Shown here one piece after another: positions 15,401 to 46,988 of a stretch of DNA of 64,000 nucleotides. Under the pieces are notes generated by a model. That model searched no databases, had not been told where the DNA came from, and saw only the letters and a list, made by a program, of their open reading frames with translations. Source of the DNA: Lytechinus pictus (taxonomy: Eukaryota); the NCBI RefSeq assembly GCF_037042905.1, contig NC_087251.1:20090001-20154000 (forward strand), in the 5' to 3' direction. Position 1 is the stretch's first letter. Each line of letters starts with the position of its first letter. A program made the position numbers and the translations under genes.

Positions 15401-18400
15401 ATTATCTCCTTTTTTCAATTTCAGAATCAGAAGCAATGAAAATGCAAAATAAAAAAAATGGGCCAGGATCACACATTTGAGAAAAAAATATTGAAATAGA
15501 ATAATATCACAAATAAAAGTTCTTTCTTTTAGAAAGCCACTAAACATGCACATGTTTCTCTATACATACATTGAGATATCCTTGAATTTTTCATTGAATG
15601 AATGAGGTACATGTATTCATAGTTCATTGACCCTGACTGTTTAAATAAATTCCAGACATGTGTTAACTGAATGATAATCCACAGGATAAATCAACTGCTA
15701 ATTGTATATATCCTGTCAGTAACACACAAGGCTAAAAAGATGAATTGGTGCCTCAGTGGTAATCTTTGCTTTTCAATTTTAAATCATCGTAAACTTCTCC
15801 AAACTTAAAAACATACTAGTAAAATATTTTCATCTTTGTTTTCAGTAGTTAAGAATACAAGAATACTGGAGCAGGTTTGTAAGTTTCGTTCATTTTCCAT
15901 CTATCTAAAATCATAGAACTGATTTTATTTATATTCCATGGAGATCTCTCTGGCATTTTTTTTCTCCGAATACTTCATTAATATGTTTTTTTTTTATACC
16001 TGTCTTCACATACATCACGGAGTGTAAATATTTGCCTTATAAATTTGCCAAAATTTGTACACTTCTGAATTAAATTATTGAAAAAGCAAATAGATTTTGA
16101 TAAAACAAACACACCACAAAATAAAAAATAAACACCAACAAACCTCAATATACAAATCTCATAAATAACAGAAGGGGTTGTTACTTATGACCAGTTTATG
16201 AAAATGACCAAACTTTGAAATTTTAAGCTTAAAGGAGAATGAAACCTTTGAAACCAGCTGAATCCATATCAAAGAGAAAAATCAAAGAAACATATTGTTG
16301 AAAGTTTGAGGAAGATTGAATGAATAATAAGAAAGTTATGAGCATTTGAATATTGAGATCACTAATGCCATGTAGTTCCTCCCATTGGCAATGCGACAAA
16401 GATCTGTGATGTCACACACGTACAACTCCCTCATTACTTTAGTACTTATTTCACTTATATTGTCACTTTTATAGAGTCCATCACAAGGTGAGGTGTTCTC
16501 TTTATGAGAGGACAAGTACAGAGGTTTCACAACATTATTATCATTGATGAATCGTTTGTCATATGATTAGAATGAGCAAAAAGAGATGTTTTGGAGTATA
16601 TTTTCAGTGTCCAAAAGGGGAGAGTTGTTCATCTGTGACATCATAGATCTTGGTCGCATTGCCAATGGGAGGATCTCCATAGCATTAGTGATCTCGACAT
16701 TCATATGCTCATAACTCTTCTATTGCTAGTCCTATTTTACTCAAACTTTTGTTGATCTTATTCTTTGATTTTTCTGCTTTCACAAAAGCTAACTTGCTCC
16801 AAGAGTTTCATTCTCATTTAATATGAACAACTATGTTAAACAGGGTACGAAAATAACACACAAAGCAAGTACAGTACATGCACCTATTTATCATGTATTA
16901 AAAAGTAGCTTCCTTCATATGTAACAAATAAATTCCAAATTTCATCAGTATATCAATATTGAAATAACTACTTCAGAAGGTCATATTCCAAATTACAATT
17001 TTCATCGCTCTAATATCCACCTAATAGTTTCATCTTCATCAAGTGAATGAATATCCAACACATGACTCCAGATTACATTTCAAAGAAAATAAAAAACACT
17101 TGTAGACATCACTCACGCATACACATAATAAGAATCAGGTATATCATAAGAGCAATAATACACAATATGAAAACAATAAATGATGACAAAGAAATGCACT
17201 GAGTAAAGGAGACATTCATACCTGAACCATCCGGTCCATTGGGGTCCATATACTTGGCAGCCTGGTTGTTGATGTTGGTGACTTGCTCACCATACACCAC
17301 AATGTCGGATTCCAGCATGTTGTGCTTCTGTATGAGATCCTCAACCCCCATCAAGTGCTTGCCATAGTCCTCCGATAACAGCAGCACCTGGAAATTGAAA
17401 GTGTCATTTTCTTTGGTCAATCCTCACAGCTATCAAAGGTCAATATCAAATTGCAATATATTCTACCAGCTCGCGAAAACCAAATGTACACCATCAAGAT
17501 CTCCCAATAACCTAATATCGGTGTTGTGGCCAGGAATAGATTCTCACCATTCATTTCTTTGGAGCAGTGTTATATAGTTCACATACATGTACATATCACG
17601 CATGATGTCAAAATGTAAATGAACACGGTTAATAAAATCTAAAGAATTGAATTTTTTTTCGAACTCATTCTCACAGAAAGAATATGCTTTGACAAGGGAA
17701 AACAAGAAGACATCCCTTGTAGCATCAAAGAAAGGGACTCCTGCTTAGATACCACACAAATAATTACCATGATCGCATGATCAATTAGCTGGAACCATCG
17801 TCGTGTTGACACAAATGGTACAATCCTCAATGAAACAAATCGGCAGGCAAACCTTAAAGCCAATATACTCCAATCATAAACTTGACCAACATAAAATTCA
17901 ATCCAACAAGTCCTTCCCATCACCACCATGACCACCACAACTACCAGGTACATAGTAATGAAGACCAATACAGGAGCAATTGTTCAATTCATATAGACAA
18001 TTTTCTTCTTGGGCAGTTGTTTGACGTCATAATACCCAAGAACGGAATCCCCTCACCTTCCTATGATCTCAAGGAGGATTGGAGTCAAATTGAAAGTTAT
18101 GACCAATATCATCACCTCGCCACCATACCATAAGAATATGTATGTACCTTTATGAGCAACGATATGTACAGGGAGAGTGTACTGGATTCAATCAAAGAAT
18201 ATGACTTATTCACCTCTCTGCTCGTACTTTATTACACAAAGGAATTGTTGTATTTGCTGACACCTATTTCTGGTTTATTTACATGTGATCCTTGATGTTG
18301 CTCGTTCAGTTAAAGTCGTAATTTCTCTAGATAATTCAAGTGAATCAAAACTAAATTTCATCTTTGGATATTAAAATCAACAGTCACAGACCTGGATTTC

Positions 18401-24400: not shown

Positions 24401-27400
24401 CGATATGATATGATATTGACCCAATTTTGGTCATGGCAGGTAGATCAGTTCATGTCAAAAGAGAGAAAAAGGTCAACAGTTTATAAAACTGCAAAACTCT
24501 CTTTTGAAGAGGTAAAACTTTTTTTCAGGATTTTTTCGGGCAAGTGAAATAGATTTTGGGGCAAGTATATTCCAACAATTTGAAAATTTACTTGCCCAAC
24601 CAGGCAAGTGCTTCTAAATAGTTATGTAGCACCCTGGATAAAAGCATATCATTCATGAATGGAATTGATTTTTCTCCTTTTTTTCCCCATTAAAAAAAGG
24701 AACAGAAAATACACAATCAAGTTACCATGATAAATGTTTTCCAAGTTTTATCTGTGGGAAAAATGCACATTTTTTAAAGATGTGAGGAACCATAAAACTC
24801 AGCACACAGAATCGATTTCTGTTTTTTTTTAATGTGCATTTTAAAGATATTTAATTCAATATCAAATCAATATCAACTGTACACCTTTACATGAGCAGTA
24901 TAAGCATTTTTTTCCTTTTATTTACAAATTTTTTAGAAACACAAACAGTGAGCTCAAATCTTAAACGAATGTCCCTTCCCTGAAAAAACACGTGAACAAC
25001 ACACTACTAGCATAAATCGAGCAGACACTTTCCCCCTTTAAATGATAGTTATACTTTTGGACAAATGATAGTTATACTTTTGGACAGGTACTGGGTCATG
25101 TAACAATAGAATAATGCAATTAGCTTTGATGCATGCATTTGATTGTAAAACCTTTATCTGAAATCTATATACCCCACAATCTAACCAAGCACAGCTGGGG
25201 ACCAATTAGTACAGAGAAGATAGCAGCAGCAGAATTGATTTATGAGAGGGATCCATAAAGGACTCAGAATCAAATATGAAATTCACAGGAAAGGTATAAT
25301 GTACATGCATATTCAGTGCATAGCATTTTCACCCATTCATCAAGAGAGTATCTGAAGAATCTCTAAAAATATATCATTAAAATGTTGAGCCATACAAATC
25401 TTGAATTCTTTGAAGATAATCTTTGAGAACTCTGATCTGTATGAAGCTGATACAATTCTCTTTTCTATATTTTCTCTCTTATTGCCCCACCCCTCCCCTA
25501 TTCCATAGAATGCATATTTGCACCTTCATTTGGAAATAGGCTGACCTCTTCTACTCTACCATAGCGACTCAGTCTATGAATTCACTTTCCCAAGGGAAAT
25601 ACTGAAGCAAATGCATCTAGAACATGTAAATAATCCCCTTTCAAACTGGTGATGACTGAAGATTTTGACCTATCTACAAGTACACACATTCAATAGGCCT
25701 ACATTGCACCAGGCAGCTATGCCTGTCAGATCCTAATGGAAAATCAGAATGTAAACAAAGTTCTTTAGGATAGTGTCGCCACTGTCTATTGGAATCTGAT
25801 GTGGAAGATTTATTGAGCTCTTCTAAAGGGAGATATCTTCATGTCATCTCAGATTAAGAATGATTAGGACAAATCACTGGATGATTATCTCCAGGAAAAG
25901 ATACTAATGAAGTCCATTTAGAACCCCTTCTACTGTTTATTGTGTTGGGTGAGCTAAAAAAGACCACACAATGTCGAATATTATTTCAAAGAAAATGATA
26001 GGAGACAAAAACAAACAATGTGAACCCGAATTGGAGGACAGTATAAAATTTAATGTTTATGTTTATGATTTATTTTATCAGCTCTGTGTTCATGTAGAGG
26101 CATCATGGTCTAGCGGGTACATCTCCAGACTACAGATCACAATATTTGGGTTCAATTCCTGGTTTGGCCCCTATGGCCTTTGGCCAGCAAAGTACTATTA
26201 ATCTACTTTTACCACACTTGACAGAGGTGTTAAATTGGTACCAGGAAGGAATGCATTCCTCAAAATGCTAAAAAGTGCCTTACTTGCAGCTATGCTATAG
26301 CTAGGTCCTGCATAAAAGCGCTATTCCTTAATAGCATTATGATTATAATCATCATTAGATCAGTCTGTACTCACCTTCGGGGTCTAGGAGCTTCATCAGG
26401 CCTAGTTTCTGTTCAGCAACATTGAATACATTGTTTAGGTTCTGAACTGGTTGTACTTTGGTCAGTTTGTTGTAGTCGATCAGGTCCGGCCTATGCTTGT
26501 GTACAAGTGCATTGAAGGCCAGACCATCTCGCCAGCTTGTTGTGAAGTTGCGGATGTCTACATTGGCGTAGCCGGCTGTTTTCATCTGGCACCAGAGGAG
26601 GAGGGCATCCTTAGCCGATCGTGTCTCCTGGTTGTCTTCATCTTCAAAAGAAATATCTTGAATCTAAAGAATCATACAAAAAAAGAAGATATTGTCATCT
26701 TTTTATTTCCAGGATAACAATGACACAGTATTTAATGTACATGTAAACACATTCAAGGAATCATAGCAGGGGAATTCTGTACAACTGTTTCTTTCAAATA
26801 CTTCCAACAGAATTGCAGAAAAAAATTTAAATAGCAGCAAAAATAAGAAGCCTGAAGGTCCAAGCAATCGAGAGACAATGTAACTTACTCCAATGAATCC
26901 ATTCTTATACAGGTAAGGTGGCATAATCATGCTAACAGGCCTTGCCTGAACAGCACCTCTATGTTAGGAACCCAGTAGAGGCACGACTGACCAAGTCCCA
27001 TCATCTCAAGAATACATAAATGTGTATGATTTCTTGCTAAACACGTAAATGAGGGGTCAGAAAATGGATGGAAGATTCCACCACCAGCTAAACTTAGGGT
27101 GTGATCAAGATGGTGTCTGATTTAGAAGGTTGATAAATGAAGGCACCTGCGTCTCTTCGTGCCACTTTGATACCCCCAGAGGAACATTTAATGAATTTTC
27201 CATTTAGCATGTACTGAAAATACGTAATCAGGAAGATATTTCATAACAAGAATTGAGAGAACTTTCGCTTGGTTATCTCCAAACTTGTTCATGTTAACTG
27301 TAAACAGTATTTTTTCTTTTTCTAATTTTTGAATTCACTCTTTCAAGGATAAAAAATGTAAAATATAGGTTTCTATTGTATTGAAGCAATTAAAAGTAAT

Positions 27401-30400
27401 ACTAAACTCTTTTAACAGCTTCATTACAATTTTACTCTGTACTACCGGTAATCATATCCCCTGGAAGAATGTAAGAATGTACATGTAAGTACATGTAAGT
27501 TTTCCCTCTAATCCTACGTGTTATGATTTTTTATTCAGATAAAGATATGTACACAAATTGCTGTATAGTACATGTACATGTATGTCTACATACTGAGGTT
27601 TATGCTGTTCATGAACATGTGGGTGTATAAACTCAAGTTTGAATTTTGGAGCCATTCTGGAGGAAGTCAAGCTAATTGGTTCATAAAACAGGGAATAGTT
27701 TATACCCACATCCTCAAAGATTCTTATCATAGCTTGGCTGTTTGTAAGCAATAATTCACATTTCCTTTGGAGTTCAAACTTTCCTAAGTACTCTAATAGC
27801 TAAGGTGTACAAGTACATGTGCAGTAAACAACTGTTGCAATACTAACACTCAACCTTTACAGATATGTGATTTCAGAATTACACGTTTTTTGGGGGGTTT
27901 TCACAAAGAAATTATTCTTAGATATTTTTTTCACTGAATTGCCAAAATATAAGGCCTACATAAATGTACATTCTCTTCAACTTTTGATGTGAAATCAAAT
28001 TGGATTCTATACTCTGTACTATACTGTACACATGAAGGCCTACATGTATAGATCTGTATTTTTAAATATGTCTGCATAAACAAATTGTATCTTTTTTTTA
28101 GGTACATTACTGTACAGTATGTACATGTACACTGTGCAGTCAAGTAGATACATGTAATGCAAATTTGTATTTCTTCCAGCTTGCATTTTACTGTACAGGA
28201 CTATATAATGCATGTACCTACTAACAGCGCACTAAAGATAGGCGAGCCATGCTGTCATCCATACAGCAAGCTCTAGAGGTTTTTATAATGTTATGCATCA
28301 AGTGCTGGGTGTAGTTCAATTTCATCAGCATGGAATGCCCTAGTGCCTGTAGGCCATGCACCCAACGATGAATAAGCCAGCATGCCATAGCAGCATTCTC
28401 TGTCAGGCAAATTGCCTTCACCTTCGCTCACTCTTCTCCACTCACTCCCACACTTTCATTTTCCCTTTCTTTTTTTGTACCTACTGCATGTATATTGGCC
28501 TAAATATGATTTTTATCATTACTTTACCTCTCATTTTATTAAGCACCATCTCATGCATTCCTAATATGCTCTCAGAAAATCCCATTATTCTTTTTTTTTT
28601 CAGTTCAGATTTCTAGATTTTGAAGATTTCATTTCCAATGGTTTTTTTTCATGATTTAGGCCATCTTGAGGAAAGAGCACTTAAACAATCATAATGATAT
28701 AGAATGAAGTTCCTCCATGGGTTAAAATATCCCCTTTTTAATAGCAATGTCCATGTACATTTATGTCTTTTTCAATCAATATCTTTAGATATACTCCCTG
28801 AGACATTGAAAATAAAATGCATATTTTCATTTAACAATTTATCCCTAACACATACAGTTTGCATTCTTCCCATTTCCTTCCTATGTATGTACATTATATA
28901 TCTCTATAAAGACCCTCATCCCTTCCTCTCTTTCTCTTTCTCTCCTCCTTCTCATCTCACATTCAATACACTGGAAGCTAAAAGCCGCATCAACCTCCTT
29001 GGTGCCTCATCAAAGCCCGAGCCGTCATATTGCTTCAGACTGGGCTTGGCCACTAGTGCATTTGTGATGCAGAATTAATGCGTCAAATAAGCACTCTCGA
29101 TGTGTTATTCCAATTACGAATCCTAGCTTACTTTGCTTACATGTAAGTTATCAAACAGTTTGACTGCATTTGTAAAGTTGTAAATGAATACAAAGGCACA
29201 ATGGGAGACATCATTGAAATTATTCACTATTAAAATGGGATTTACCTTTCAAAATAATGCAGATGTCCCCCACTGGGTTTGCATATATTGCAAGTACATG
29301 TACTTTATTCTCTGTCATGTCATGAATGGCTGTACTACTAGCTGTATCCTCTAAAAGGTGGTGAACATTATCATTCCTTTGATATATTTTAATTGGCATT
29401 ATTGTTTGGAGAAAAAATGAATTAATGCATGAAAACCTTCCTTTTTTTAATAATTCAAATAATGACATTTTAATGTTTTTTTTTTCTTTCAGAATTACAT
29501 CATGACTTTGTACATCCAATAAAATAAACTTATACCACTCCAGTTTAAAGCAAGAGTGGAGAATATCATGTAAATTGACCAGCTCACTGTCACATTCCGA
29601 GACCTTACTAAAATAGCATGCGTAACTATTTATGACTGTGAACTTGAATTAACATTTAATCACTTTAACATCTTCTCTTTGACGAGAAGCACATTCCAAA
29701 ATATGCATTCTGCCATGCAGCCAATGGAAAGGTCATGTTTATAAACCCTATCTATCATTCACATGGTACAGTTACATGTACATTACAAGCGATGCTGCGG
29801 CTTCAACCATGTTACCATCTATACCAGTATTAACCCACCCATAATATAAGACTGACAACACGAATACTGAAGAATACTGGCCAAATGATTTCACCTTCTT
29901 TTATCAAAAACAAGATTTTTGTTTGTATGGGGTGGGGCAAGAGAAGAAATGACACATCTCTCTTTAAAAGTTTCGATCACAAAGAAAAAAAAAAGATGAC
30001 AAACAATGGAAAGGCATCAGGCATATTTATTATGCTACACTGTAGTTTTGTTTTCATGATAAAATTTCCAAGATAAAAGTTAATAAAATGTGACCCCATT
30101 CGATTTCAAAATTAAAAGAACAATTTCCTGGTGAATCTGGTACATGCATACCACATTTACAGAATTATTGTTTTTATCATGAAAATCAAGTACAGATGCT
30201 TTCTCTTACATGTTGAGGAAAAGGTATTTGCACCGCTGCTGGTCTAAAGTAAGACGTGAACATTCATATTTGAATGATGCGTTTCTTAAAACCGAAATCA
30301 ACAACAACAAAAATGGATCTAGTTGGACACCTACCTGGAATCTAAGGATGATGGTCCAGATGAGACCGAGGGTCAATCTGTGGTTGCTATCTACGATGTC

Positions 30401-33400
30401 ATGGGATCCCATGTTCTCTAAATGTACACGTTTCTCTTTCAGGAATTGCAGGGCCTTGTCTACGTTCTCTAAGCAGTGAATGCGCATCTTGCCTTTGGTA
30501 GGTTTGGGCTGTAATAAAACAACAAGATTAATGAATTTAGTATGACATACTGTATTATCATGAGGCCTACTGTATGCTGGTTGTATAAACACTGTACGCA
30601 ATGTTCAATAGCATCTTACATTTTCAGGCATGCTATGCAGAGGATTGAATGGACGTCAGCAACATCACAAATTTATAAACAATCTATCGGAGCCTGTTTT
30701 AAATTATTTCAAAGAAATATTATATGGAGCAAAATCATTCTCTCCTGAAAAAAAATACATATACAGCATAAATCATGCATATCAGAGAAGTGCAGATACA
30801 TGTAGGATGAAAGGTAAGTTATCAATATCACAGATTAATGAACTATCAATGGCTACAAGCCTACATGTTTAAAATTGTCCTGAAGCCCTACATGTAATTT
30901 AATTTTTATAAACATTCTGGAATGAACTCTTGCCCCCTTGAAACAAATATAAAATCCCATATCTTCCCAATGCAATGCAGTTTTAACAACTGAGCTGATT
31001 TTTTTTTTTTTCTTGATCACTCATCTTCTCTGCATCATACAGTACTTGTAGATATTGGTATCAGGCCGATGCAAGAGGAAAAACATCTGGTATTGGAGCA
31101 GCGAAATTTTCTTTATTTTCATAGATTTACGTATGAAATAACCAATTATTGTTCATATTTTCGCTAACTTCCGAGGCATTGTACAGGTACAGCTTAAACA
31201 TTTCGCAATCAGTGAAAAAAGAGACACTCTATTCAACGAGGCGTTATAGAGGCCATAGAGCATCTTTCTTTCACATTATGCGATCTCTTGCACCATCGCT
31301 CCCATGCCTATTCGCCATTTGTATAATGCTGATCAACGCATTATTGAATGAAATTCAGTGGACCAGCTAAAGGCCTGGTCCCACAAATGTTTTATGCATA
31401 TTAGGCCCTACAGTATGTAGCATGATCTGGGGCCATAGATTTGCAATCTATGCAACCTACAAATGTAAAGGTTCATACATGTACATATATTTGGGACTTG
31501 TGTGCAATCTTTCTTTAGTTGCAATAGAATGCAACTTTTTTTTTAAATGGGCCAATGGTCAACAATGTGATGTCTCATGAACCAAACACAACGCCACACA
31601 GGCCCCTACATGTACAACATACCTACACATAGAAAATAATTTGTGTTTAACAATAACAGTAACTCTTTATTCTTCATTATGCACCCCAGCCTGCACATAC
31701 ATGTACATGTATGTACTGTGCATGTACAGTATGTGCAATTAAATTCTAACAAATGATAAAGAGCAAATACCAGGTATGAAATAATTCACATTTACATTTG
31801 TACCTGAAAACTTCAGGAGAATGGCCTTGCTACTGTTTGTTTTAAAAGGCATGTATTTTACATATCACATCGTCACCAATGTGTTCCATACAGTATGTTG
31901 ATTACACACTGTACATGTATGTAGTAAATTAAATTTACATGTATAATGTACAGCGTACATGTATGCCTACATCATACATGTACATGTACACCCTTGGGCC
32001 CGTATTCTGAACTCGAGTTTAACTTATACCCTTTTTACACACGCTAAAATTTCCTTAACCCCGTACTATAGGTGGGGCTAAATGGCAATTTAGCCCCACC
32101 TATAGTACGGGGTTAAGCTTAGCCCACTTTCTTTTTACACAGCATTTTTGCAAAGTGGGCTAACCCCACCTTTAGTACGGGATTATTTGGCCCTGCAAAA
32201 AAGCAGGGTTATCCCAGCAATTGCGGTGCTAAGAGCGATAGTACGGGGTTAAGATCGCTAGTGTAAAACGAAAGTGGGCTAAGCTTAACCCCGTACTATA
32301 GGTGGGGCTAAATGGCAATTTGGCCCCATCTATAGTACGGGGTTAAGGAAATTGTAGCGTGTGTAAAAAGGTACGAGTGAAGTACTTGTACTACGAATGA
32401 TCGACAAAAACCACTAGTCCGGGGTTAGCGAGTTTCGTGTGTGAAAAGCAAGGATTCCTTATCCGGGGTTAGCGATAACAATTTGGCATGTGTGAAAAAG
32501 AAAAAAAATAGTACGGGGTTAAGGATAGTACGGGGTTAGCGATAGTCCGGGGCCAAGAAAATCCTGTGTAAAAAGGGTATTAGAGTCACTGTGGACTAAC
32601 TCTGTGCTAAATTATGGGAAGCCAAAACATGTAAAAATTTGTTCACATGTTACATGTACATGTATGTTTCTAATGTTACTGTGCTCTTTCCTAATTAATG
32701 GTGATGACAATTATCTTATTTATCCTTTCCAGACAGTTAAGTCTGATACATGTATGAGAGTCAAATGAACTGATACCATGGACCTCTACTGTTACAGATT
32801 TATGTCACAATCTGCTATCCATACATGTACATATAGTTAAACTGCACTTTGAGACTATAGAGTTTAGAATTAAACCCAACTTCAGAATACAGGCCTTGGG
32901 CTATACTGTAAAAATACAAATTTATCCAACAATCAATGAGTGCACTCAGCTCAGAGCAGACTCTCCAAGGGTGAGACCTAACACCCTGCATGCATAATAC
33001 CAGTCCCCCACAGTCAATAGAAGATTGAAGGTTATCAACTATACCCTGGGAAAGGAAAGACTTTGAGGTTTGAAACAGATGAATGCTCACATACAATCAT
33101 CTCTATTTGTTCTTTTCCCATTCAATACACATCCCTGAATTTTTTTTTAATGGTGGAGTTTGACATAATGTGATCACATGTTGAATTATGAATACTGTAG
33201 TAGACATCTGCGCACACTATTCTCTTGCCACGTTTCAGTGCATGTTGATGACTCATACAATAGCAAACAGTGAAGATGCTTGCATGGGTCACACTCTACT
33301 GGATTCTTAGCAAGACATGTATGCCAGTGAGTACGTGGGTGGTGGCTGGCCAGTGTGATCATACTCCAAATCGTCAATTTGACTGAATTCATGCCATGAT

Positions 33401-36400
33401 TTCTACATACCAGTACATTATATTAATTACCATTCAGACATTTTTTCATTTGACCTTTCACGTCTCTTTGACATAACACAATAAAAATTAAAAGTAATTT
33501 ACTGACACACAATGTACTAGGCCTACAACACACTGTTCATACATGGGCACTGTACAAATACTGTAAGCCCATGTTAAAGGTGAAAACATTATTAAGGGGA
33601 AGCCCAAGGCACTCCAACAAAAAGTTGATGAATACAAAAAGCATGTTAAAAAAAAATTCAAATTGGATGTATGTGTACTGTACATGTTAAATAAGAAAGT
33701 TATGACATTCTAAAATTTCAATAATTTTCTTAAGACAGCTGATGATGTCACTCACTATTTTTTGTATTGAAATTAATAAAGTACATTATTTCAATTTTGC
33801 AAATTTGACAATAATGATTCTTCATCAAGTGTTCAACAATGGTAATTCTAAATGGTGGTGGTGATTTTTTTTACCTGATTGCTATTACTGTAAAAGAAAG
33901 CATGAATGCTTGTACATGTAAGCAAGCAGCCAGACGCCTAACGGCTTTAATAGGATTCTCTACGATGGACCTGGTAATGAGGATACAAAACTGTAAATGC
34001 CTTTAAAGGTCAAGTCCACCCCAACAAAAAGTCAATTTGAATAAAAAGAGAAAAATCCAACAAGCATAACACTGAAAAATTTATCAAAATCGGATGTAAA
34101 ATAAGAAAGTTATGACATTTTATACATGTAGTTTCGCTTAATTTCACAAAACAGTTATATGCACATTCTGTTTGGTATGCAAATGAGGAGACTATGATGT
34201 CATCCACTCACTATTTCTTTTGTATTTTATTATAGGTAAATGAAATATTCTAATTTTCTCCTCATTGTCAAGTAATACAACGATTAATTCCTCCCTGAAC
34301 ATGTAGAATTAGCATTGTTTAATAATATATGGTTCAGTCAAGTTGGTCTTTATTGTCAAATCTATAAAAAATGAAATATTGTATAATTCAAAGTTTCAAA
34401 CAATAAAAAACAAAAGAAATAGTGAGTGATGGACATCATCGACTGACTCACTTAGTTGTGCATATCACTGTTTTTTGAAAAATAAGCGAAACTTTAAAAT
34501 GTCATAACTTTCTTATATTACATCCAATTTTGATGAAATTTTCAGCATTATGCTACATGTAGTTTGATTTTTCTCTATTTATTCAAGTCTGCATTTTCCT
34601 GGGGTGGACTTGACCTTTAATACCAAAGGACACTAGCGTAACAAGTGGGAAGCGAATCCGAAACCCCGCTCTACCAACTGAGTTTTCCCCGCCTCCGATG
34701 GTGAATTTTTTATCATATGAAAAAATACAAAAGTAACCAACCAACCAAAGTAACCAAAGTGAGTGGATGAAATCAGCGGCTCACTAATGAATATCAACCA
34801 TGTCTTGCGAAATTAATGTTAGAACTTTCCTATTTTAGAACGTTCTTATTTCACATCATATCAATTTTCTTGTTTTTATTCAAATCAAGGTTGACTTCAC
34901 TAACAAAATATGGATTGATTGAGGGCAACTTGAACAATTTTTTGTATGCAAATAAATAAAGTTCATGTAGCAAACACCCCTCCCTTTGTTTCTTCTCAAA
35001 ACTCAAATACAATTTGTACAAATTTGGCGCGTCAATATAACATGTGACTGACCGTTCAAAGTCCTCAACTGATTTTGTTGCATTGTGAAAAATCCATGCA
35101 AACTCAAATAGCTCAACTTCTTCCGGCAACATTTTATACACATCAGTACTCTATAGTACAAAGACATAATTTTCAAAAGGTATCACAATCGCAGTTATTA
35201 CTGTTACTTTATAACTGTGTTAGTGATGCCCATTTGCATGAATTAAAAGTCACTTTTATCAATCTACTGTAGATGTAATTCTAAAAAAAAACAATTCTTT
35301 CTTTTGCATTGTGTGTGTGTGTTTGGGGTTATTACATTGTAATTTGATTTGAAAAAAAAATTGTTCTCATTTTCACAAACAGTCCCAAGAGGTGTTAAAG
35401 GAGAATGAAACCCTTGAAACCAGCTGAATCCATATCAAAGAGAAAATCAAAGAAACATATTGTTGAAAGTTTGAGGAAGATTGAATGAATAATAAGAAAG
35501 TTATGAGCATTTGAATATTGAGATCACTAATGCCATGTAGTTCCTCCTATTGGCAATGCGACCAAGATCTGTGATGTCACACACGTACAACTACATGTAC
35601 CTCATTACTTTAGTAATATTCTCACTTTTGTAGAGTCTATCACAAGGTGAGGTGTTCTCTTTATGAGAGGACAAGTACAGAGGTTTCACAACATTATATC
35701 ATTGATGAATCGTTTGACATATGATTAGAATGAGCAAAAAGAGATGTTTTGGGGTATATTTTCAGTGTCCAAAAGGGGAGAGTTGTTCATCTGTAACATC
35801 ATAGATCTTGGTCGCATTGCCAATAGGAGGATCTCCATAGCATTAGTGATCTCGACATTCAAATGCTCATAACTCTTCTATTGCTAGTCCTATTTTACTC
35901 AAACTTTTGTTGATCTTATTCTTTGATTTTTCTGCTTTCACAAAAGCTAACTTGCTCCAAGAGTTTCATTCTCCTTTAAGCAGTTTCAAATACATGCAAC
36001 TTGTGCTATTTTGGAGAGTGAAGTTAAATTTTGATACCATGATACATTGTAACTTCAGTGCTGCCAACAAGGGGCTATAAATGTCACTTTCTGGTAATTA
36101 AAAAAAACTTGTTAAATTTGAGCATTGATTTGACTTATCAAAAATAATCTGTACATCCCATTTGCTTAATACCTGCAACTTGTACATAAAGAGTACTTAA
36201 ACCTGTGTCTGTGGTTCTAAAAATGAAAAGTGAGAAGTCAAGTGACCACAAACACTATCCAAATTTTATTCCATGTATAATTGTATACCATAGAGTCTCC
36301 AGCAGAGAAATTTGAAGAAAAAAAATTCATAGAAAAAAAAGTTATAGATACATGTATTTTGAAAGTGTCTCCAAGAATTGGACTTTTATTTTCCTCCTTT

Positions 36401-39400
36401 TTTAATTTCAATCCACACTTCAATTTTTTTTTTAAACAAGACCATTGTAATGTTAACCATTTTTAAAGCACCATTTGGACATTGTACTGATACAGTTACT
36501 GTGGCATCAATGAAACATTAAAAATAAATGTGTAGTACTATAGTGCATCTTCATCCTAGATCTACAATGTGGACATTAAATTTATTTTTTTTGCAAGATT
36601 TTTATATTAGGCCATTACATGAGACTACATAATTCCTACATGTACATGTAGACCTATATCTATATTGTACAACGCCTAATACGGTACATGTAGCTTGTTG
36701 TACACAGGTAAATGGGAGGCTGAATGTCAAACATTCGTACCGTTGCACACACGACGTACAATCCAAAATGTAGTTGCATGGCTTTAGGACATGATGTCAC
36801 AATACGATTCAATTCATTAATTCTCAGTTAAAAATGAAGGCGAAATACGTGTATAGCCTGCTGGCTAAATGCTGCCCGAGGTCATATTATTTCATCTTAT
36901 TTTTTCATATTTTTGCCAAACTCCGAGGCGTTGTACAACACAAATAGCGATTATTCTAGTTCGGGCAACGGTGTGAGATTTCGCATTCGGTGAAAGAAAG
37001 AGACACTCTATTTATATACAGCATCTTTCTTTCACCTCATCCAAAATCTCACACCATCGCACTCATGCCTTTTCGCTATTTACTGTATAACTGGTGACCT
37101 AACATTTTGCAATCATTATTATCTGTAGCATCATTACAATACTGTACTAATAATCATTCAATTTCACATCTTCTATTACAAACATAGACCAGATGTACCG
37201 TAGTCCTACATGTATACTGCAAAGCTCATTAATTCTATTGAGTGTTTCCAAGGCCAGGGGAGAGAGTTTTTCGTACACTTTAGATGATTTTTTTTTAAAT
37301 GTCTACAGCTGTATAGGACCTACATGTACAGCAGCCATTAACAAGACAAGTAAAAGGAACATGTAAGCCTACATGACATTGACAAATAATGTAAACATTT
37401 GTACTGTACATGTAGGCATACTTCACAATAAGGTAATTCTGTACATACGTACACAATACTTTAATAGTGGTGGTCGAGAGAAACCATCACTTGGGACTTA
37501 CATTTCTCGATAAACCAATAAATTTGAAATGAAAAATTGGCCCAATAGTGGACGTACATGTATACTACATAGTGTACTGTACACTACAGTACATGTACAT
37601 CATCAGCCTCTGATAGAAAACCTTTCTATCTCAGCAGCATACCATGTTACTGCAGTATGCCTGGATAACAGACACACCCTTTTGCAGCTAGAGTATTCAT
37701 TGAGCAACACATAATAAGTCACTGTGTGTATATGCGCAGATGTATGGAATAGGATTCCCTACTCCATCTATACATCCCTAGTACATGTACAGTACATCGA
37801 TGAGAATGAGATGGGAAAAACTAGACTTGATGCAGTGCCATAGAAGTTTACAATGTGTATAATATCTTCATAAAAAATTATTGTTTAGAAACACAATGCA
37901 TGCAGGCATAATAATCTGAATAAGTTTATTTTACTTCACTTTCGATATCCAATCCAGTTTATAGATCATATTTCCATTCAAAGTACCGTTAAGTTCTGTG
38001 TAGGCCTACATGTATACGGCGCACTTACATGTATTTTTACATCAGGAAATGTAAAAAGTTGAGGTGCGCCATATACACGGGTACAACGGAATCGCGGCAG
38101 CAGTCCCGACATGAATGCATACATATATAGTACATGTATGGGGCGGTAGACAGAGGATAGGTGCACGGGATGTTGCACAGTTTTATAAATGTCAAAATAC
38201 ACATAAAAAATTTTCATACATGCAATATTCATGATGAATACTTATCACTTTGAAAAAAGCAAAAACATGCATGATCTTTATTCCACTAGCACTGCACAAG
38301 GCACTGTGATCTACCACTACACTGATTCGGCAGCAGGCTTTTCCCACTCGCAACGCATTAACAAGGTTGTACAAGGTACGGTCACATGATTTTTGCAAAT
38401 GGTAGTGGCATATATACGTGCGGGTTTCTACTACACCACCAGCATATTTGGAGTTAGCAGCGTTTTTTTCTTTTTTCTCTGTTGTCCAATTAATTACCGC
38501 TTATTTAGTGTTGAAAAGCGAGGGGAAAAAATGTGGCGCAAGTAAGGAATGTGTCAATTCGGATGGGTAATTTTCATGTCCTTATAAACGGGTGCACCGT
38601 ATACACAAAACTTTACAGGACTCAATCCATTGAATGCAGGCCCTACATTTATGTAATGGAGTCCTAAAGCTACATGTATGCATAAAACTCATTGCGCATT
38701 AATTTTAATAGCAAAATGCAGGCCCTATGGGACTGTTACCGTATATATACAAACAAGCTGCAATAAATTTCAAAATTAAGAGAAAAGCTGCATAATTTGC
38801 AGTATTGTAATTTTATTCTCATTAATAGTTTATTTTCATTAATAACATGAATAGGCACTATACGTGTACCTTAGAAATACGGACACAAATATGCATAATT
38901 ATTTTCTTTGCCTGAAAAATTGAGTACATGTACATAGCATTAGGATTCCTTTCAAACCCGGGTGTGAAATCAAGATTTGTTCAAAGATGGCAAGATTTTT
39001 GGTCATGTTGTTTAGTGAGTTTTATGCTACCCACTTCTTGAGTCATTATCTTTAAAATATTTACCACCAATTAAATACACAGCCTGCCCAAATATTTGAA
39101 TTGCCATAGTAGGACCAACTTTGTATTCAATTTGGGCAGACAACATTCAACACAAACTGGCAGAAATATGTCATATTTTCACGCTCCCAACAACAGATTT
39201 CAAGTGCAACGAGGCACTAATTGTTGCATTTTATATATGTTTTGAAGACAGGCCTATAGGATTTTAATAGGGCTGGGTAAAAATGATTAACTGCCAGTCA
39301 AATGATTGTCAAAAGCATGTACCGTATTTCAATTCTGGCAAGTGTTCAACAGTATGGAAGAAAACAGAAAAAGAAAAGTATCAGTGAAAATTCACAAAAG

Positions 39401-40471
39401 TCCAGAAGTCAATCTTTCAGAGTCGAGAAAGAAGTGAATATTTTGTTTTCTTCATAGACAACCAGATGAAATTCTTTCAAGAAAATATGGACAATAAAAG
39501 AGTATCTCATCATGGGTCATCATGCAAAGTGAAATGTAAATATTTTTATAAGCTTTTCAATTTTTTTTTGTCACTTCTATTTTTCTTGGAGCAGTGCAGC
39601 CGCATTCTACAGATTTCAAGGGCCAGATATATTATTTTGTTTTGGTCAGACTTTCACCATTTTGCATATAAATGTATTAAAAGAAGAAACAATAAGAAGA
39701 AACATACTAAAAATACACAAACATGAAGGCAATATAATTTCTTAATCCCCCCAAAAAACAGGAAAAAAATGAGCTGAAATAAATCAAATAAAACAACTTA
39801 CCAGTTTGTCCCCTGATAAAACTTCTAGTAGTTTGATTAGCATACGTCCATCATATAAATCCGTATATAGATCCACAATGCGACAGCCAACTCTTTGTAA
39901 ATGTGAGTTTACCCATTTTGTGAATGTTTTCTTTTGCACCATTTCACGCTCATCTGGAAAAATTAAAAAAAATTATCATCAATCCTAATAATTAAGAGAA
40001 ACCTTTACGGTAATACAAAAGCATGAATAATTGCTCTTTCATTCCATAGTCCATACCGGGAGTCCATATAAAAACAATATAACTTTATTAAAAGTAAATG
40101 AATTAGTGAACAATTATGTAACTGTCCATGTGCACCTTCAATGCAAAAAAAAAAAAATTACACTTAGCACAAGAGAATCTAATGATTTTATCTTAATATT
40201 GAATGAGCTGGATAACAGACTGTTGAAGAATACAATTCTATTTCATACAAAGGGATTAGTGAGATATGTGATCCCCCTGTAAAAACATACATGTACATGC
40301 CCAACTATTCCTGTACTTCTAAACTCTGGACAAATGTTGTTTCGATTTCTTACCTGCCAGCGCTCTGATTCGAGAACGCTCAAACAGCTTGGCTCCTCCA
40401 TCATCCAAGCTGCTTTCCACGTCTTCATTGTTATCCCACTTGACACCATTGTTTTCCATTTCTACCGACAT
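308..40471 (-). CDS. SPTBN1: Beta-spectrin (conventional, SPTBN1/beta-Spec-like), 29 coding exons in window, 3'-truncated by window edge
   Basis: Manual splicing gives 5553 nt / 1851 aa with all GT-AG introns and matching phases. It contains the beta-spectrin N-terminus ([29 protein letters not shown]), CH1/CH2, [48 protein letters not shown] and the ankyrin-binding repeat 14-15 region ([14 protein letters not shown]). The symbol denotes the family; an invertebrate gene is co-orthologous to several vertebrate beta-spectrins. Confidence 0.97.
730..798 (-). CDS. SPTBN1: Beta-spectrin exon 28
   Basis: [23 protein letters not shown]. Confidence 0.94.
1229..1423 (-). CDS. SPTBN1: Beta-spectrin exon 27 (ankyrin-binding repeat 14 region)
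   Basis: [13 protein letters not shown]...[31 protein letters not shown]. Confidence 0.96.
1854..2058 (-). CDS. SPTBN1: Beta-spectrin exon 26
   Basis: [28 protein letters not shown]...[24 protein letters not shown]. Confidence 0.96.
2545..2753 (-). CDS. SPTBN1: Beta-spectrin exon 25
   Basis: [31 protein letters not shown]...EGHPQ. Confidence 0.96.
3366..3656 (-). CDS. SPTBN1: Beta-spectrin exon 24
   Basis: [32 protein letters not shown]...DSNKAQQ. Confidence 0.95.
4376..4597 (-). CDS. SPTBN1: Beta-spectrin exon 23
   Basis: [17 protein letters not shown]...[33 protein letters not shown]. Confidence 0.94.
5005..5268 (-). CDS. SPTBN1: Beta-spectrin exon 22
   Basis: [19 protein letters not shown]...[13 protein letters not shown]. 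Confidence 0.95.
5800..6037 (-). CDS. SPTBN1: Beta-spectrin exon 21
   Basis: [26 protein letters not shown]...[30 protein letters not shown]. Confidence 0.95.
6531..6703 (-). CDS. SPTBN1: Beta-spectrin exon 20
   Basis: [28 protein letters not shown]...KAENIDER. Confidence 0.94.
7190..7357 (-). CDS. SPTBN1: Beta-spectrin exon 19
   Basis: [56 protein letters not shown]. Confidence 0.95.
7888..8163 (-). CDS. SPTBN1: Beta-spectrin exon 18
   Basis: [31 protein letters not shown]...[12 protein letters not shown]. Confidence 0.96.
8638..8754 (-). CDS. SPTBN1: Beta-spectrin exon 17
   Basis: [39 protein letters not shown]. Confidence 0.94.
9007..9232 (-). CDS. SPTBN1: Beta-spectrin exon 16
   Basis: [13 protein letters not shown]...[15 protein letters not shown]...[18 protein letters not shown]. 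Confidence 0.95.
9647..9849 (-). CDS. SPTBN1: Beta-spectrin exon 15
   Basis: [29 protein letters not shown]...[17 protein letters not shown]. Confidence 0.94.
10097..10261 (-). CDS. SPTBN1: Beta-spectrin exon 14
   Basis: [55 protein letters not shown]. Confidence 0.95.
10583..11168. mobile_element. Non-autonomous Kolobok-like DNA transposon (long-TIR MITE)
   Basis: TTAA on both flanks; termini AGGGAAGGTCCGGGCTGAAA / TTTCAGCCCGGACCATCCCT; inverted arms of ~200 bp; 5'-AG..CT-3' ends with TTAA TSD are typical of Kolobok. Confidence 0.85.
11263..11340 (-). CDS. SPTBN1: Beta-spectrin exon 13
   Basis: [26 protein letters not shown]; phase 0/0. Confidence 0.92.
13750..13866 (-). CDS. SPTBN1: Beta-spectrin exon 12
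   Basis: [39 protein letters not shown]. Confidence 0.95.
14217..14417 (-). CDS. SPTBN1: Beta-spectrin exon 11
   Basis: [37 protein letters not shown]...LLEAVDLYQ. Confidence 0.95.
14849..15093 (-). CDS. SPTBN1: Beta-spectrin exon 10
   Basis: [21 protein letters not shown]...[20 protein letters not shown]...LLNKQK. Confidence 0.95.
16233..16817. mobile_element. Kolobok-like MITE, family B copy 1
   Basis: TTAA flanks; AGGAGAATGAAAC...GTTTCATTCTCAT; internal inverted repeats; near-identical to 35399-35975. Confidence 0.87.
17222..17387 (-). CDS. SPTBN1: Beta-spectrin exon 9
   Basis: [29 protein letters not shown]...DPNGPDGS. Confidence 0.95.
18480..18680 (-). mobile_element. Decayed SINE copy
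   Basis: ccattcacctcacctgggt is the reverse complement of the central motif of the SINE at 17-262; the surrounding sequence also matches. Confidence 0.6.
18800..18938 (-). CDS. SPTBN1: Beta-spectrin exon 8
   Basis: [46 protein letters not shown]. Confidence 0.94.
19496..19818 (-). CDS. SPTBN1: Beta-spectrin exon 7
   Basis: [44 protein letters not shown]...HDIERINAR. Confidence 0.96.
20541..20658 (-). CDS. SPTBN1: Beta-spectrin exon 6
   Basis: [39 protein letters not shown]. Confidence 0.95.
22735..23112. mobile_element. Kolobok-like MITE with short imperfect TIRs
   Basis: TCAA/TTAA flanks; AGGTATTGTTTAAC versus GTTAACCAATCACT; internal palindrome taggcgtct-ta-tagacgccta. Confidence 0.6.
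23881..24181 (-). CDS. SPTBN1: Beta-spectrin exon 5 (end of CH2, repeat 1)
   Basis: [27 protein letters not shown]...YRTVEKPPK. Confidence 0.96.
24261..24636. mobile_element. hAT-like MITE
   Basis: TIR CAGGGTGCTACATAA / TTATGTAGCACCCTG; exact 8-bp TSD GATAAAAG on both sides; repeated internal ACTTGCCC/GGGCAAGT motifs. Confidence 0.92.
26097..26356 (+). mobile_element. Decayed tRNA-derived SINE
   Basis: tggtctagcgg A-box-like, gggttcaattcc B-box-like, aggtgttaaattggtaccaggaagg core, ATT-rich tail ending ~20 bp from the exon 4 donor. Confidence 0.7.
26375..26663 (-). CDS. SPTBN1: Beta-spectrin exon 4 (CH2)
   Basis: [61 protein letters not shown]...LLDPE. Confidence 0.96.
30335..30508 (-). 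CDS. SPTBN1: Beta-spectrin exon 3 (CH1 C-terminal part)
   Basis: [58 protein letters not shown]. Confidence 0.96.
31100..31330. repeat. Dispersed palindromic repeat, copy 1
   Basis: Shares ccgaggc.ttgtaca, gtgaaa.aaagagacactctatt and gcatctttctttcac...caccatcgc with 36890-37090. Confidence 0.65.
31997..32895. mobile_element. Host Harbinger-like MITE interrupted by 32027-32579
   Basis: TIR GGCCCGTATTCTGAA / TTCAGAATACAGGCC; TTG on both flanks. Confidence 0.75.
32027..32579. mobile_element. PIF/Harbinger-like MITE with an internal array of TAGTACGGGGTTA motifs (nested insertion)
   Basis: TIR TACCCTTTTTACAC / GTGTAAAAAGGGTA; TTA on both flanks. Confidence 0.85.
33592..33860. mobile_element. 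Decayed Kolobok-like MITE fragment
   Basis: Starts ttaagggg; carries aataagaaagttatgacatt and gatgatgtcactcactatt like the left arm of 34007-34616. Confidence 0.55.
33920..34690 (-). mobile_element. tRNA-derived SINE interrupted by a Kolobok-like MITE
   Basis: Minus strand reads CTCAGTTGGTAGAGC (A-box) ...GCTAGTGTCCTTTGGTA-TTAA, resuming AGGCATTTA... beyond the MITE. Confidence 0.55.
34007..34616. mobile_element. Kolobok-like long-TIR MITE
   Basis: TTAA flanks; perfect termini AGGTCAAGTCCACCCCA / TGGGGTGGACTTGACCT; long inverted arms. Confidence 0.88.
35399..35975. mobile_element. Kolobok-like MITE, family B copy 2
   Basis: TTAA flanks; AGGAGAATGAAAC...GTTTCATTCTCCT; same orientation as copy 1. 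Confidence 0.87.
36890..37090. repeat. Dispersed palindromic repeat, copy 2
   Basis: Similar to 31100-31330; gtgaaagaaag / ctttctttcac inverted pair. Confidence 0.65.
37986..38618. mobile_element. Tc1/pogo-like non-autonomous element
   Basis: TA|CCGTTAAGTTCTGTGTA..TACGGCGCAC left end versus GTGCACCGTATACACAAAACTTTACAG right end. Confidence 0.6.
39802..39953 (-). CDS. SPTBN1: Beta-spectrin exon 2 (CH1 N-terminal part)
   Basis: [51 protein letters not shown]; tccag acceptor, gtaagt donor. Confidence 0.95.
40354..40471 (-). CDS. SPTBN1: Beta-spectrin coding exon 1 (exon spans 40354-40497 including 26 nt of 5'UTR)
   Basis: [45 protein letters not shown] start with an in-frame TGA two codons upstream; acceptor ttatgcag, donor GCAG|gtaag. 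Confidence 0.9.
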
Positions 40472-41329
40472 GGCTCAAAGCCTATGTCTTCCTACTCCTG
40501 CATAAAATTAAAAAAAAAATTATTATAGAATAAAATAGAAATCTAGTTTGGTTTGTCAAACAAAAGTCACTTGGGACTGCTGAATTACAGATTTGCATAC
40601 AATTTAGAAAAAATTTGTAAATCTGAATGAGACAAGAATGCATTTCGAAACAGGAATCATAAAATTATAAAAATACAGAGCTCATGCTCATCGATATTAT
40701 TAATATAATAAATTCATTTGTGAGGGAAAAATATATTTTGGGGGCTACTTTTCAAAACCTTCTGTCTAAATCTGCAACACTGTCCAGACAAGCTTTCACA
40801 ATGCAGTGAATGGGGGTTTCCAGGGCTCTTTTGAGCATTTTGGGGGCAAAATTGCCCAGAGCCACTATGTGATTTTTTTCCTGCTGTAAATGTGTAGGAT
40901 TTACTGTACGCCGAACATGTACATCTTTTCCTTGATATTTACAGAAATAATTTGCTGACTTTAAGTTGGTTCTTACCTGTATACATGTAGGCAGATGTAT
41001 ACAGAACAGAAAAAAAAAGGGAAACATTTTTTTACTGCTACAGATTTATCAAGATCCAACATCATTACCGTAAGTAACGGTCTATTAACCGCACCTTTTA
41101 ATCGGCGGGATAGAAGCAAAAGTCGGGGGTGCGGTTTATCCACGGTGACGGGTCTGAGCCAGCTCGTCGTAACCCTTCCCGAACATGTAAGACGTCTGCC
41201 AGTTCACAACACATCGAGTGGCCGGGCGTAGCCGCCCAGGGCAATGTCGTTTAGAGGGGTATGAGCCGCGGGTAATGATAAGCGATTAATAAGATTTTAT
41301 CAAATATTGTCCATAACAAACGCACCCAC

Positions 41330-41640
41330 CTTCATGACACTAATTTCGACTTTTATTCTCGGTTCAAAGCAGCGAAGTTCCCTGGCTAAGTTCAAAGAGA
41401 AGCCAAGCATACTCGGTAATATTTTGTCACAGCTGAGCGAGAGTTGAGTTAGCTGAGCTAGCTTGCGTTGTATTGTGGTTATAGTGCGACTTAAGCTGGC
41501 GCTATTCATTTTAACCCTCGATCCCCTCCAAAGTCCTGTTTCGCGCCAGCTTATTTTTTCTTTCCCCGTTTGCTTTTCATAAGATACCATGTACACCACG
41601 CAACGAGAGAGACGGCACGAAGCCGTCAAAACAACTGTAA
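41330..41640 (-). promoter_or_regulatory. Candidate beta-spectrin promoter and non-coding first exon (proximal)
   Basis: CpG-rich patch ~41050-41640 with donor AAG|GTGGGT at 41330/41329. Confidence 0.4.
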
Positions 41641-43994
41641 AAAATGCAAATTTCTTTGTTTCTTTAACCTTCCTGTAATCCCGTATCCAAAATTCATGCT
41701 AATACATCGAATGCTAGACAAATTCTGAAAGTGATTGTGAGTTTGTGATGCAAGAAATGTGAATGTTTCTTCCTCCTACGGCGGGAAAGACACAGATCAT
41801 TATTTGATAAGATGTACTGGTACCGATCATAGTTTGCAATGTACAAGAACGGCAGTGCTGTGTGTGTGTACACTGTGACTGTGAGGTGAGTGATTGTGTA
41901 AGTGGCCAATATTGTCGGGACCTTTCTTTCTTGCAAACATTTGTAGATGAATTGATCAAGAACAGTAGATTTCCGCATACCGGTAATCTCTTTGGATACT
42001 TTGAAATCTTTAACTTAGTTTTTGTTTCTTCGTACCTCAAATATAATGTGAGGATTTTTTTTGGTCCAAATTGGGGGTGCGGTTTATAGTCCGTTACTTA
42101 TGGTACTCATTGTACATAGATCTATACATGTACACTGACCTAAACACACACGGCAATGTACATTGTAGCTCTGATTCATCATCGATGCACAAAATAATGT
42201 CCTTAAAAAGAGCAAATTCGGAATCTCAAGTCACAACTGTGACTTTTGGCCTTGGATTAATGACTCGATCTAGTATCACAAAGACAAATACATTTACTGG
42301 CTTCACTAGCCCTAACGTAAATAAAGACAAAGATCTATTTGCATAACAAGCCCATGAATTGAAATCACAACCCCCCTTGTGACTGGATCTTGGCTACATG
42401 TACGTCTCATGTCTTTCATTCAAAGTTTAAAACTACATTGTACATGTACTCCTGCCTACAAATTGGTCTGACATATTGCAGCTTTTCACAGCAGTATCCG
42501 GCATTGATGACATTACAAGTAATTCAGACTCCAGACCAATTCTTTTCCTTTTCAAGATCAGAGAGAATTCATGGTCATATATGTAACTTCAAAAGAAACG
42601 TATCCGTACAAAACTGAGGCAAGAGGTTTTCTCACAGAGAATGTGTGCATGTGTACTTGATTTTTTTTTGTACGTGTACAAAGGAGATATATGATAATTT
42701 ACGGTCTAGGACGATATATTATATTACCATCCAAAAGACATGATCAGGGTCTGAACCACTGCATCAATTTGTAACTTCCCCACATGGATTGGGTTACAAG
42801 TGAACAACACAATGCCAAGAATCATTCAGTGAAAAAAATTACAAGATAAAGTTGTAAACATGTTCAAACACATAATTTGGAAAAGAAGTGGAAAGGGGCC
42901 TTGAGAATAATCCTGATGATAGTTCATGTCCATATTCTACCAACTACCTATGCCACTCAAAACCAAATACTTCAAAGGAGCAAAGAAATGTAATCCAAGG
43001 TAAATCCATGGTAAATTAAAAATGCAGATCTCCAACTTCTCTAAATTGGTCATAAAAAAGCAATAATAATAAATACTTCCCATTTTTACTTTAAAAAAAA
43101 TCATATCTTTTCCTCTTTTTCCCTCTCAATTTATTCAAATTAATTCAGTAAAATCTTTAAAATCTTTAAATTACAACCTGTGCAAACTGTAATAACAAAT
43201 TTGGCCTCAGAATTCATCAGCATGAATCGTGCTATTGACTTTATTGTAATTTTCAATTTGTGATTCAACGAACATCAGACCACGGGCTGTGAAATGAAAA
43301 TTCGTTACCAGAATTAATCAACAGATCGTATCCAGATATCGGATAGATTCTAGTGTTCATGTTGTTCCAAACCCATGACTGACATTACTATCTATAGAAT
43401 GTAGAAGTGAGGGCACTACTTTCTCTAGAAGCGAGGGCATTACTTTCTCTACATATACATCAAGTTCATGTAGTCCTGGATGCAGGATCTTCTGAAAAAT
43501 ATTCCTTTATGTCCAGCTCTTGGTGGAGCGGTCTGGGGGAGGGCCGGGGGAGGGGGGGAATCGAATTATGAAATGTGCCGCACCAAAAATGAAAATCAAG
43601 GGTTTGGAACTAAAATTTGGTCTTAAAATGGGGGTCTCCGGAACTGCTCTAGTATCAATGATTGCTAAAAATGCAATGCTCTAGAACGGCATGAATTCTA
43701 TGTTTCGGAGTGTTGCATGAAATTGGTCATGGCGTTTCTGTGCGATGAACCAATCAGCGACCTCTGAATCGCTGTGCAGGGCACTGGAACAAGAAACAAT
43801 AAATTTTAGGGTGTCCGGAACAGGGAAAAATAGACATTTCTATGGCTTTCAAAATCAGTGATGCTCTGGAATGGAAATTTAGGCTGAAAATGTGGTTCTG
43901 GCATTATGCCACCACAAATCAATCCTCTTTTCAAATTGTAATACATTAACCTCACAATCTCATGAAGACTAACAACTATGTTGACGGGGTGGTT

Positions 43995-44492
43995 GGGGGG
44001 GGGGGGTACTCGACCAAAAAAGTAGTAGGTATGTGCCGCGGGCGAGAAAAAAAAAGGGGGGCCTTGGAGCGGGCTTATTGTAAAAAGGAGGGTCCTCAGA
44101 ACGGGCGTCGGAACTACAAATGTTTGTGAAAGCGGGGGTCCTTTGAACGGGTCGCCTGCATGTGAGTGCGTATGCATCCCTATGGAACGTGCATGCAGCT
44201 AGCTCGGCGGCACGGGCGCTGGGTGCGCTAGCGCAGAGGCGATGGTCGGACAGCGCTCTGCGGCCCCTTTTCACCAAAATTGCGGCTTATTGTAAGCAGA
44301 TCAATTCGGCCGGAACTGCGTAACAGAAAATATGCGAAGCTTTGGGGGGGATTTCTTTCTTCTTTTTTCTCGATAAGAAGAAAATGCTATGCTTTGGAAC
44401 AGAAATTTGAGTGTAAAAATGGGGGTCCCCTCTGCGGCACAGCCCCCACTATGCATTATATTATTTATATACTGAGTGCCCCCCACCCCGGG
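43995..44492. mobile_element. GC-rich non-autonomous TIR element
   Basis: G-run-TACTC left end and GAGTGCCCCCCACCCCGGG right end; GTGCCGC/GCGGCAC subterminal inverted motif; a related decayed copy precedes it (~43535-43920). Confidence 0.65.
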
Positions 44493-46898: not shown

Positions 46899-46988
46899 GA
46901 AACAAGAAAACGATATTCACATTTTTATATGTTACTTCAAAACCTACGTGCCTTAAACTTCATGAGTCATGTGAGTGGGGTAGATGAG

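Follow-up and report, generated by a model that had tools for sequence, protein, structure and literature searches.

The beta-spectrin locus and its palindromes

We analyzed a 64,000-nucleotide (nt) stretch of the Lytechinus pictus genome (contig NC_087251.1, positions 20,090,001 to 20,154,000 of the forward strand; hereafter the window, with positions counted from its first letter), in which a beta-spectrin gene on the minus strand hosts a dense field of the eight-letter palindrome TACATGTA, that is, TA-CA-TG-TA. The spectrin coding segments, mapped by tblastn, add up to 6261 nt, and among the 120 matches listed for the spectrin protein the top identity was 93%, to a starfish protein. A Vps39/Vam6 gene lies upstream on the same strand. 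The transcription start of the spectrin gene is bracketed by its first coding exon (~40470) and the last coding exon of the Vps39 gene (61060-61236). The spectrin gene body is CpG-poor (observed/expected 0.3-0.5) and a broad CpG-rich block extends upstream of it, at ~42.5-54 kb; a CpG-rich patch at 41-42 kb is accounted for by a transposon of about 1 kb (Table 1).

TACATGTA is the commonest 8-mer of the window, with 72 copies, 50 of which fall within 26700-42500, compared with the 55-65 copies against about 2 expected that were given in a preliminary description of this DNA. In 100 dinucleotide shuffles, the mean count was 1.7 and the maximum 5, and 1.6-4.5 copies are predicted by Markov models (order 1-6) whose training sequence had the motif collapsed. 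An order-6 model trained on the window itself predicts ~60 copies because the motif feeds in its own sub-words. These counts and backgrounds all refer to the 64,000-nt window. As first noticed by eye, coding exons are free of the palindrome: no copy of the 72 overlaps a mapped spectrin coding segment or comes within 10 nt of one.

The field spans two long introns and one short intron of the spectrin gene, together with DNA upstream of the exon that holds the start codon. Per kb of non-coding DNA, the field holds 3.26 TACATGTA, compared with 0.73 in the 3' introns and 0.32-0.33 upstream (p=6e-7 and 3e-11 in rate tests on merged sites). The lowest density of the window, about tenfold below that of the field, was found in the CpG-rich upstream block, and the earlier link of the field to germline-accessible chromatin "near the promoter" is therefore unsupported. 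The 3' introns are as CpG-depleted as the field yet 4.5-fold poorer in TACATGTA, so that CpG depletion alone fails to explain the field. What emerges is an excess with sharp edges that covers the 5' part of the gene body.

After merging, the 72 copies form 67 sites, of which 62 are single units and five are pure doubles (27568, 31698, 32651, 36637 and 31975). The first four doubles had been named in the preliminary description and are real, but its statement that the palindromes are often chained was too strong. The sites of the field do not cluster more than random placement at TAs would produce (9 pairs within 50 nt, 6.0 expected, p=0.12). Flank bias is confined to three letters on each side (p 2e-6, 2e-6 and 0.004), with position +1 poor in A and rich in C, G at +2 and T at +3. 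One-mismatch neighbours of the palindrome number 92 against 58 expected, from which we infer a mean decay of at most ~6% per letter; the sites are therefore young.

One copy, at 40982, lies within a sequence that resembles a recursive splice site: at 40972-41030, on the minus strand, a polypyrimidine tract is followed by CAG and then directly by GTAAG, with acceptor and donor overlapping, and this TACATGTA stands between the polypyrimidine tract and the AG.

Related words and stacking

Several other TA-bounded words are enriched along with TACATGTA. TACAGTA/TACTGTA occur 37 times in the window (12.2 expected) and 23 times in the field (3.0 expected); for 11 of these 23, a TACATGTA is found no more than 40 nt away, where 5.6 such cases were expected (p=0.011). 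Counts in the window are also raised for TAGGCCTA (11 versus 0.5 expected), TACCGGTA (3 versus 0.3) and TACCGTA/TACGGTA (9 versus 3.2, one of the nine being an element end). The distribution of TAGGCCTA is unlike that of TACATGTA, with 6 of the 11 copies in 42501-52000, within the CpG-rich upstream block where TACATGTA is rarest. Furthermore, the units join directly on a shared TA. Among 144 half-sites, we counted 10 joins to CATG units (2.1 expected at the window rate, 5.4 at the field rate), 3 to GGCC units (0.3 and 0.2) and 4 to CAG/CTG units (1.1 and 2.5), and two GGCC units and one CATG unit are stacked at 45964-45983.

A scan with a degenerate chain pattern retrieved at least 118 loci from marine and other metagenomes and three viral loci. 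In 10 of the 118 metagenome loci listed, some of which may derive from shared organisms, a double TACATGTA has TAGGCCTA in front of it in register, and the four 3-mismatch variants that the pattern also allows occur in none. Some loci carry long (TACATG)n runs. In four GC-richer contigs (L027, of 4525 nt, L055, L063 and L092), the non-coding parts are strings of TA-bounded palindromes with CATG, CCGG, GATC and GGCC cores, a hint that stacking of this kind extends to other eukaryotes. Five AT-rich, CpG-poor contigs (L035, L024, L064, L062 and L028) contain 0.9-2.3 TACATGTA per kb outside the matched chain, and most of them also carry TACAGTA/TACTGTA, like the window. Among the matches listed, all-against-all searches of the 118 loci yielded no clean pair of filled and empty sites beyond one weak case (L117/L035, 68% identity), with TT opposite the word, and an ambiguous array in L067.

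Filled and empty sites in repeat copies

Three clean TACATGTA sites lie in TTAA-flanked inverted-repeat elements, and at each of them (3/3) the length exceeds that of the homologue by exactly six letters. At 35592, in copy B, the letters opposite the insertion are TC in copy A and also in the other arm of the element. At 34123, in the left arm of copy C, the other arm, copies D and E and the consensus of loose ends (185-220 contigs in each of three runs) all read AA. At 34554, in the right arm of copy C, both the other arm and one contig of the family read TT, and copy D reads TC. A fourth site, the stack at 33670 in the old copy E, shows a net gain of 17 letters (6+5+6) over a TA present in both arms of copy C, and it ends in TT instead of TA. 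The exact differences of +6 and +17 exclude substitution and CpG decay. Judged from these alignments, TACATGTA arises by insertion, not by substitution. Thus, of the 6-bp insertion at TA that had been proposed, the length stands at all three clean sites, but their empty counterparts read TT, AA or TC, and a TA is found only at the stacked fourth site.

Contigs from four runs were aligned to 30700-38300, where the alignment is dominated by high-copy repeats and 12 of 308 indel rows were covered. The copy C family appears there in hundreds of copies without TACATGTA at 34123 or 34554, with 158-499 loose ends per terminus per run. No clean six-letter deletion at 34123 was found among the 12 of 308 indel rows. 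In a run from a related organism, one letter is altered inside the TACATGTA at 30893. On one strand, AAC directly precedes the palindrome at 34123, 34554 and 35592, possibly a mere matter of the composition of these elements.

Table 1. Features of the window discussed in the text
Feature	Position	Strand	Basis or remark
Palindrome field, 50 TACATGTA (45 merged sites) and 23 TACAGTA/TACTGTA	26738..42448		motif counts, shuffles
Filled site, copy B; +6 vs copy A, opposite letters TC	35592..35599		copy comparison
Filled site, left arm of copy C; +6, opposite letters AA	34123..34130		arm/copy comparison
Filled site, right arm of copy C; +6	34554..34561		arm/copy/contig comparison
Stack in old copy E, net +17 = 6+5+6	33670..33688		TA in both arms of copy C
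Copy A, empty comparator for 35592	16229..16821		copy alignment
Copy B, TTAA-flanked inverted-repeat element	35395..35979		~97% identical to copy A over aligned columns
Copy C, TTAA-flanked inverted-repeat element	34003..34620		very high-copy family
Copy D, distant relative of copy C, empty comparator	10580..11171		copy alignment
TA-flanked inverted-repeat element, CCC..GGG ends	32029..32577		nested in high-copy element
High-copy inverted-repeat element hosting 32029..32577 and four TACATGTA	about 31997-32895		single copy in window
TA-flanked element of ~1 kb, CC..GG ends, arms ~30 nt, non-coding	41068..42103		element search
Beta-spectrin coding exon (CH domain)	26376..26663	-	lower bound of field
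Beta-spectrin coding exon within field, motif-free	30332..30508	-	tblastn
Beta-spectrin coding exon within field, motif-free	39802..39960	-	tblastn
Beta-spectrin first coding exon	40346..40471	-	ATG 40469-40471, inferred from sequence
Vps39/Vam6 gene, last coding exon	61060-61236	-	Pfam zf-Vps39_C, E=1.6e-18

Candidate donor elements

Two TA-flanked elements of the window have CC..GG ends that match the CCGG and CCG words. No CA..TG element and no transposase open reading frame was found in the window, in agreement with the initial impression that no intact copy of the presumed invader is left there; the Pfam scan behind the latter result covered the longer frames outside spectrin, 25 of 96 in all. 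Scans of viral contigs, metagenomes and GTDB genomes detected no further copies of the host elements, and five viral matches to these elements were dismissed, having no similarity to the window. Elsewhere in the window, we observed a tandem array at 46220-46900 with a unit of ~106 nt and two more short inverted-repeat elements, at 57860-58050 and 58513-58929.

Origin of the palindromes

Cut-and-paste transposons that target TA, of the IS630-Tc1-mariner/pogo kind, have probably, although by no means certainly, left TACATGTA and its related words behind as scars on excision. First, a TA would be entered and duplicated by an element with CAG..CTG ends; the transposase would then cut the element out, so that each flank retains two or three of the element's terminal letters in a 3' overhang. 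End joining that retains two letters per side, combined with fill-in, would produce TA-CA-TG-TA; of this step, it is the net gain of six that the repeat-copy comparison demonstrates. Pol mu and Pol lambda, which are reported to bridge non-complementary 3' overhangs (PMC3799444), could potentially serve such joining. Pairing of three-letter overhangs would yield TACAGTA/TACTGTA (+5), and trimming would yield a minor +4 form. Each scar would keep two TAs and could be hit again, giving rise to the doubles and mixed stacks that we observe, and elements with GG or CC ends would likewise leave TAGGCCTA and TACCGGTA. Hits would concentrate in the 5' part of the transcribed gene body. The three-letter flank bias is like a transposase target preference. 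Behind the observed stacking, co-enrichment and +6 insertions, we thus infer a transposon and a repair route of this kind.

Several observations weigh against this origin. The empty homologue is non-TA at three of the four sites checked (TC, AA and TT), with TA only at the stacked site 33670, and the three would have to have mutated to TA prior to the hit. Of 34 ordinary TAs in copy B, four stand opposite a non-TA pair in copy A, each time through a CA/TG transition; of 37 in copy C, 13 stand opposite a non-TA pair in the other arm, nine of these being of the TT/AA/GA/TC type; the joint chance of three non-TA empties by prior mutation is then roughly 0.002-0.015, a post hoc figure for n=3. The +4 words TACATA/TATGTA are not enriched (74 versus 77.3 expected in the window; 24 versus 18.9 in the field). 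TACATGTA is absent from the eight footprints listed for the transposon Sleeping Beauty (SB) in the available text of bioRxiv 659086, and the flanking +1 letter is enriched in C here, compared with T in the ZB/SB target preference, given as ATATATAT in PMC7913693. Finally, a search of the window found no TA-duplicating element with CA..TG or GG..CC ends, and none of the TACATGTA sites in the material examined is in the element-filled state. Because prior mutation to TA is possible, the non-TA empties lower the case that TACATGTA is a member of the Tc1/mariner scar class, not the case that it works like such a scar.

The same empties point to an alternative that we hold to be unlikely but worth stating, namely, that the +6 product forms at T-pyrimidine (TT, TC) as well as at TA, both TAs being supplied or written during the event. 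Either an excised element would bring donor TA overhangs that overwrite a near-TA target, or the insertion would be coupled to lesion or mismatch repair at the pyrimidine pair. A model for element-borne TA overhangs is provided by piggyBac, which carries TTAA. At all three clean sites, the change reads, on one strand, from C-T-Y to C-TACATGTA, with family-level support at 34123 and support from both the paralogue and the element's own other arm at 35592, and the weak L117/L035 case, with its TT, would be a further instance. Moreover, an ordinary insertion at a non-TA pair would duplicate that pair, and the resulting words are not enriched (TTCATGTT, 8 versus 8.5 expected; TCCATGTC, 1 versus 2.1), so that ordinary non-TA insertion is no explanation, whereas excised SB fragments that keep a TA at one end are reported to integrate still (bioRxiv 659086). 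However, the sites are only three, were picked out post hoc, and two of them lie in one old diverged copy; the fourth, 33670, starts from TA. A C precedes the motif on either strand at no more than 25 of the 67 sites, close to background. The excess of TACATGTT (18 versus 6.6 expected), of which one copy is coding and several lie in a GAACATGT context, is weak support for TT targets. Were this alternative to hold, for which the chance seems to us small, a process widespread in marine eukaryotes would write a fixed eight-letter palindrome over a two-letter site that need not be TA. It would be either a transposon whose target duplication is brought along or written by the element itself or, with the same reserve, a lesion-coupled insertion at pyrimidine pairs; it would, doubtfully again, prefer 5' transcribed gene bodies, reuse its own products and make sister words with GGCC, CCGG and CAG/CTG cores.

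Replication slippage in alternating purine-pyrimidine DNA, which would build (TACATG)n microsatellite seeds, is improbable as the general source. The five pure doubles, the long runs in some metagenome loci and flanks that are slightly more alternating than those of other TAs (0.575 versus 0.526, ~2.5 standard deviations) are what it would predict, and slippage may account for some of the doubles. For single sites it is unlikely, because nothing in the empty homologues repeats the inserted letters and could act as template, and because 62 of the 67 sites are single; besides, 89 of the 134 half-sites lack an in-register extension, and the mixed stacks of GGCC, CATG and CTG units are beyond its reach. 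There is very little to commend the idea that selection has kept or gained TACATGTA as a binding site, for instance of the Irx homeodomain or of the BEN-domain protein NACC1, or that substitutions have built it in the manner of HIP1. HIP1-like palindromes, too, are iterated words of high abundance. According to PMC3520976, the same eight letters are the site that Irx prefers and also a motif abundant in Phytophthora promoters, and NACC1 was crystallised on them (PMC11472053). Nevertheless, the sites arise as insertions within repeat copies, none of the 72 is in a coding exon, unlike HIP1-type words, and the density is lowest in the CpG-rich upstream block; the number of one-mismatch neighbours is as neutral decay predicts, and a letter inside the motif has changed at 30893 in the run of the related organism. 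Conversion of TACGCGTA-type words to TACATGTA by CpG decay in a methylated gene body fits the low CpG content of the gene but is scarcely credible, given the origin of the palindrome by +6 insertion, the rarity of precursors and intermediates (one TACGCGTA, three TACACGTA/TACGTGTA) and the much sparser palindromes of the equally CpG-poor 3' introns.

Excision ordinarily leaves little countable trace. At densities of up to 3 per kb, scars of one uniform form would record the places and the frequency of DNA-transposon entry and exit in a germline genome, sorted by end type, and the process would rank as a major source of indel polymorphism in the 5-6 nt range. The window adds a spectrum of scars, CC-ended elements with matching words, a fall in density upstream and the non-TA empties; if the latter hold, the standard target-duplication model fails for TACATGTA and a new insertion route is implied. 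In addition, TACATGTA would mislead motif discovery, because it is identical to the Irx and NACC1 sites and to the abundant Phytophthora promoter motif.

Comparison with known systems

Our literature search, which left older and subscription papers and supplements mostly outside its reach, found no description of genome-wide TACATGTA or TAGGCCTA insertions in an animal, and the available text of PMC2872659, PMC12862219, PMC9976928, PMC520745, PMC1636448 and PMC3509143 contains nothing on TACATGTA as a footprint. The palindrome shares its eight letters and its high abundance with Phytophthora motif-1 and the Irx sites (PMC3520976) and with the site of the NACC1 BEN domain (PMC11472053), as these sources present them. 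Unlike these motifs and HIP1, TACATGTA here has been recently inserted into introns and repeats, is excluded from coding sequence and is sparse in the CpG-rich upstream block.

Excision products have been read from genome comparison, as here, in a survey of rice, where 8 of 94 were reported to be perfect and most to show variable deletions or filler (PMC4423477), whereas one uniform product dominates in the window. The likeness to SB is closer, since TACAGTA/TACTGTA, described as its canonical footprints (bioRxiv 659086), are enriched here and co-localised with TACATGTA. According to PMC5801840, non-TA insertions of SB make up ~1.4% and duplicate the non-TA pair as perfect target-site duplications, which differs from the product at our sites.

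The footprints of Tc1 and Tc3 in Caenorhabditis elegans resemble TACATGTA in having a TA on either side of letters that match CA..TG ends, and PMC3520976, with reference to Eide and Anderson 1988, names TACATGTA itself, but only as a rare footprint of Tc1. The comparison with Tc1 made in the preliminary description is a loose one. However, the +4 forms TATGTA/TACATA are reported to account for 73-78% of Tc1/Tc3 footprints (PMC12632400; bioRxiv 2022.08.01.502254), whereas here +6 dominates and the common +4 form is not enriched; furthermore, the scars of the window are fixed genomic features that reach 3 per kb, and three of the four checked empties are non-TA. With these empties, the lack of +4 enrichment and a flank preference other than ATATATAT, we do not file TACATGTA as a member of the class; rather, it works like a Tc1/mariner scar.

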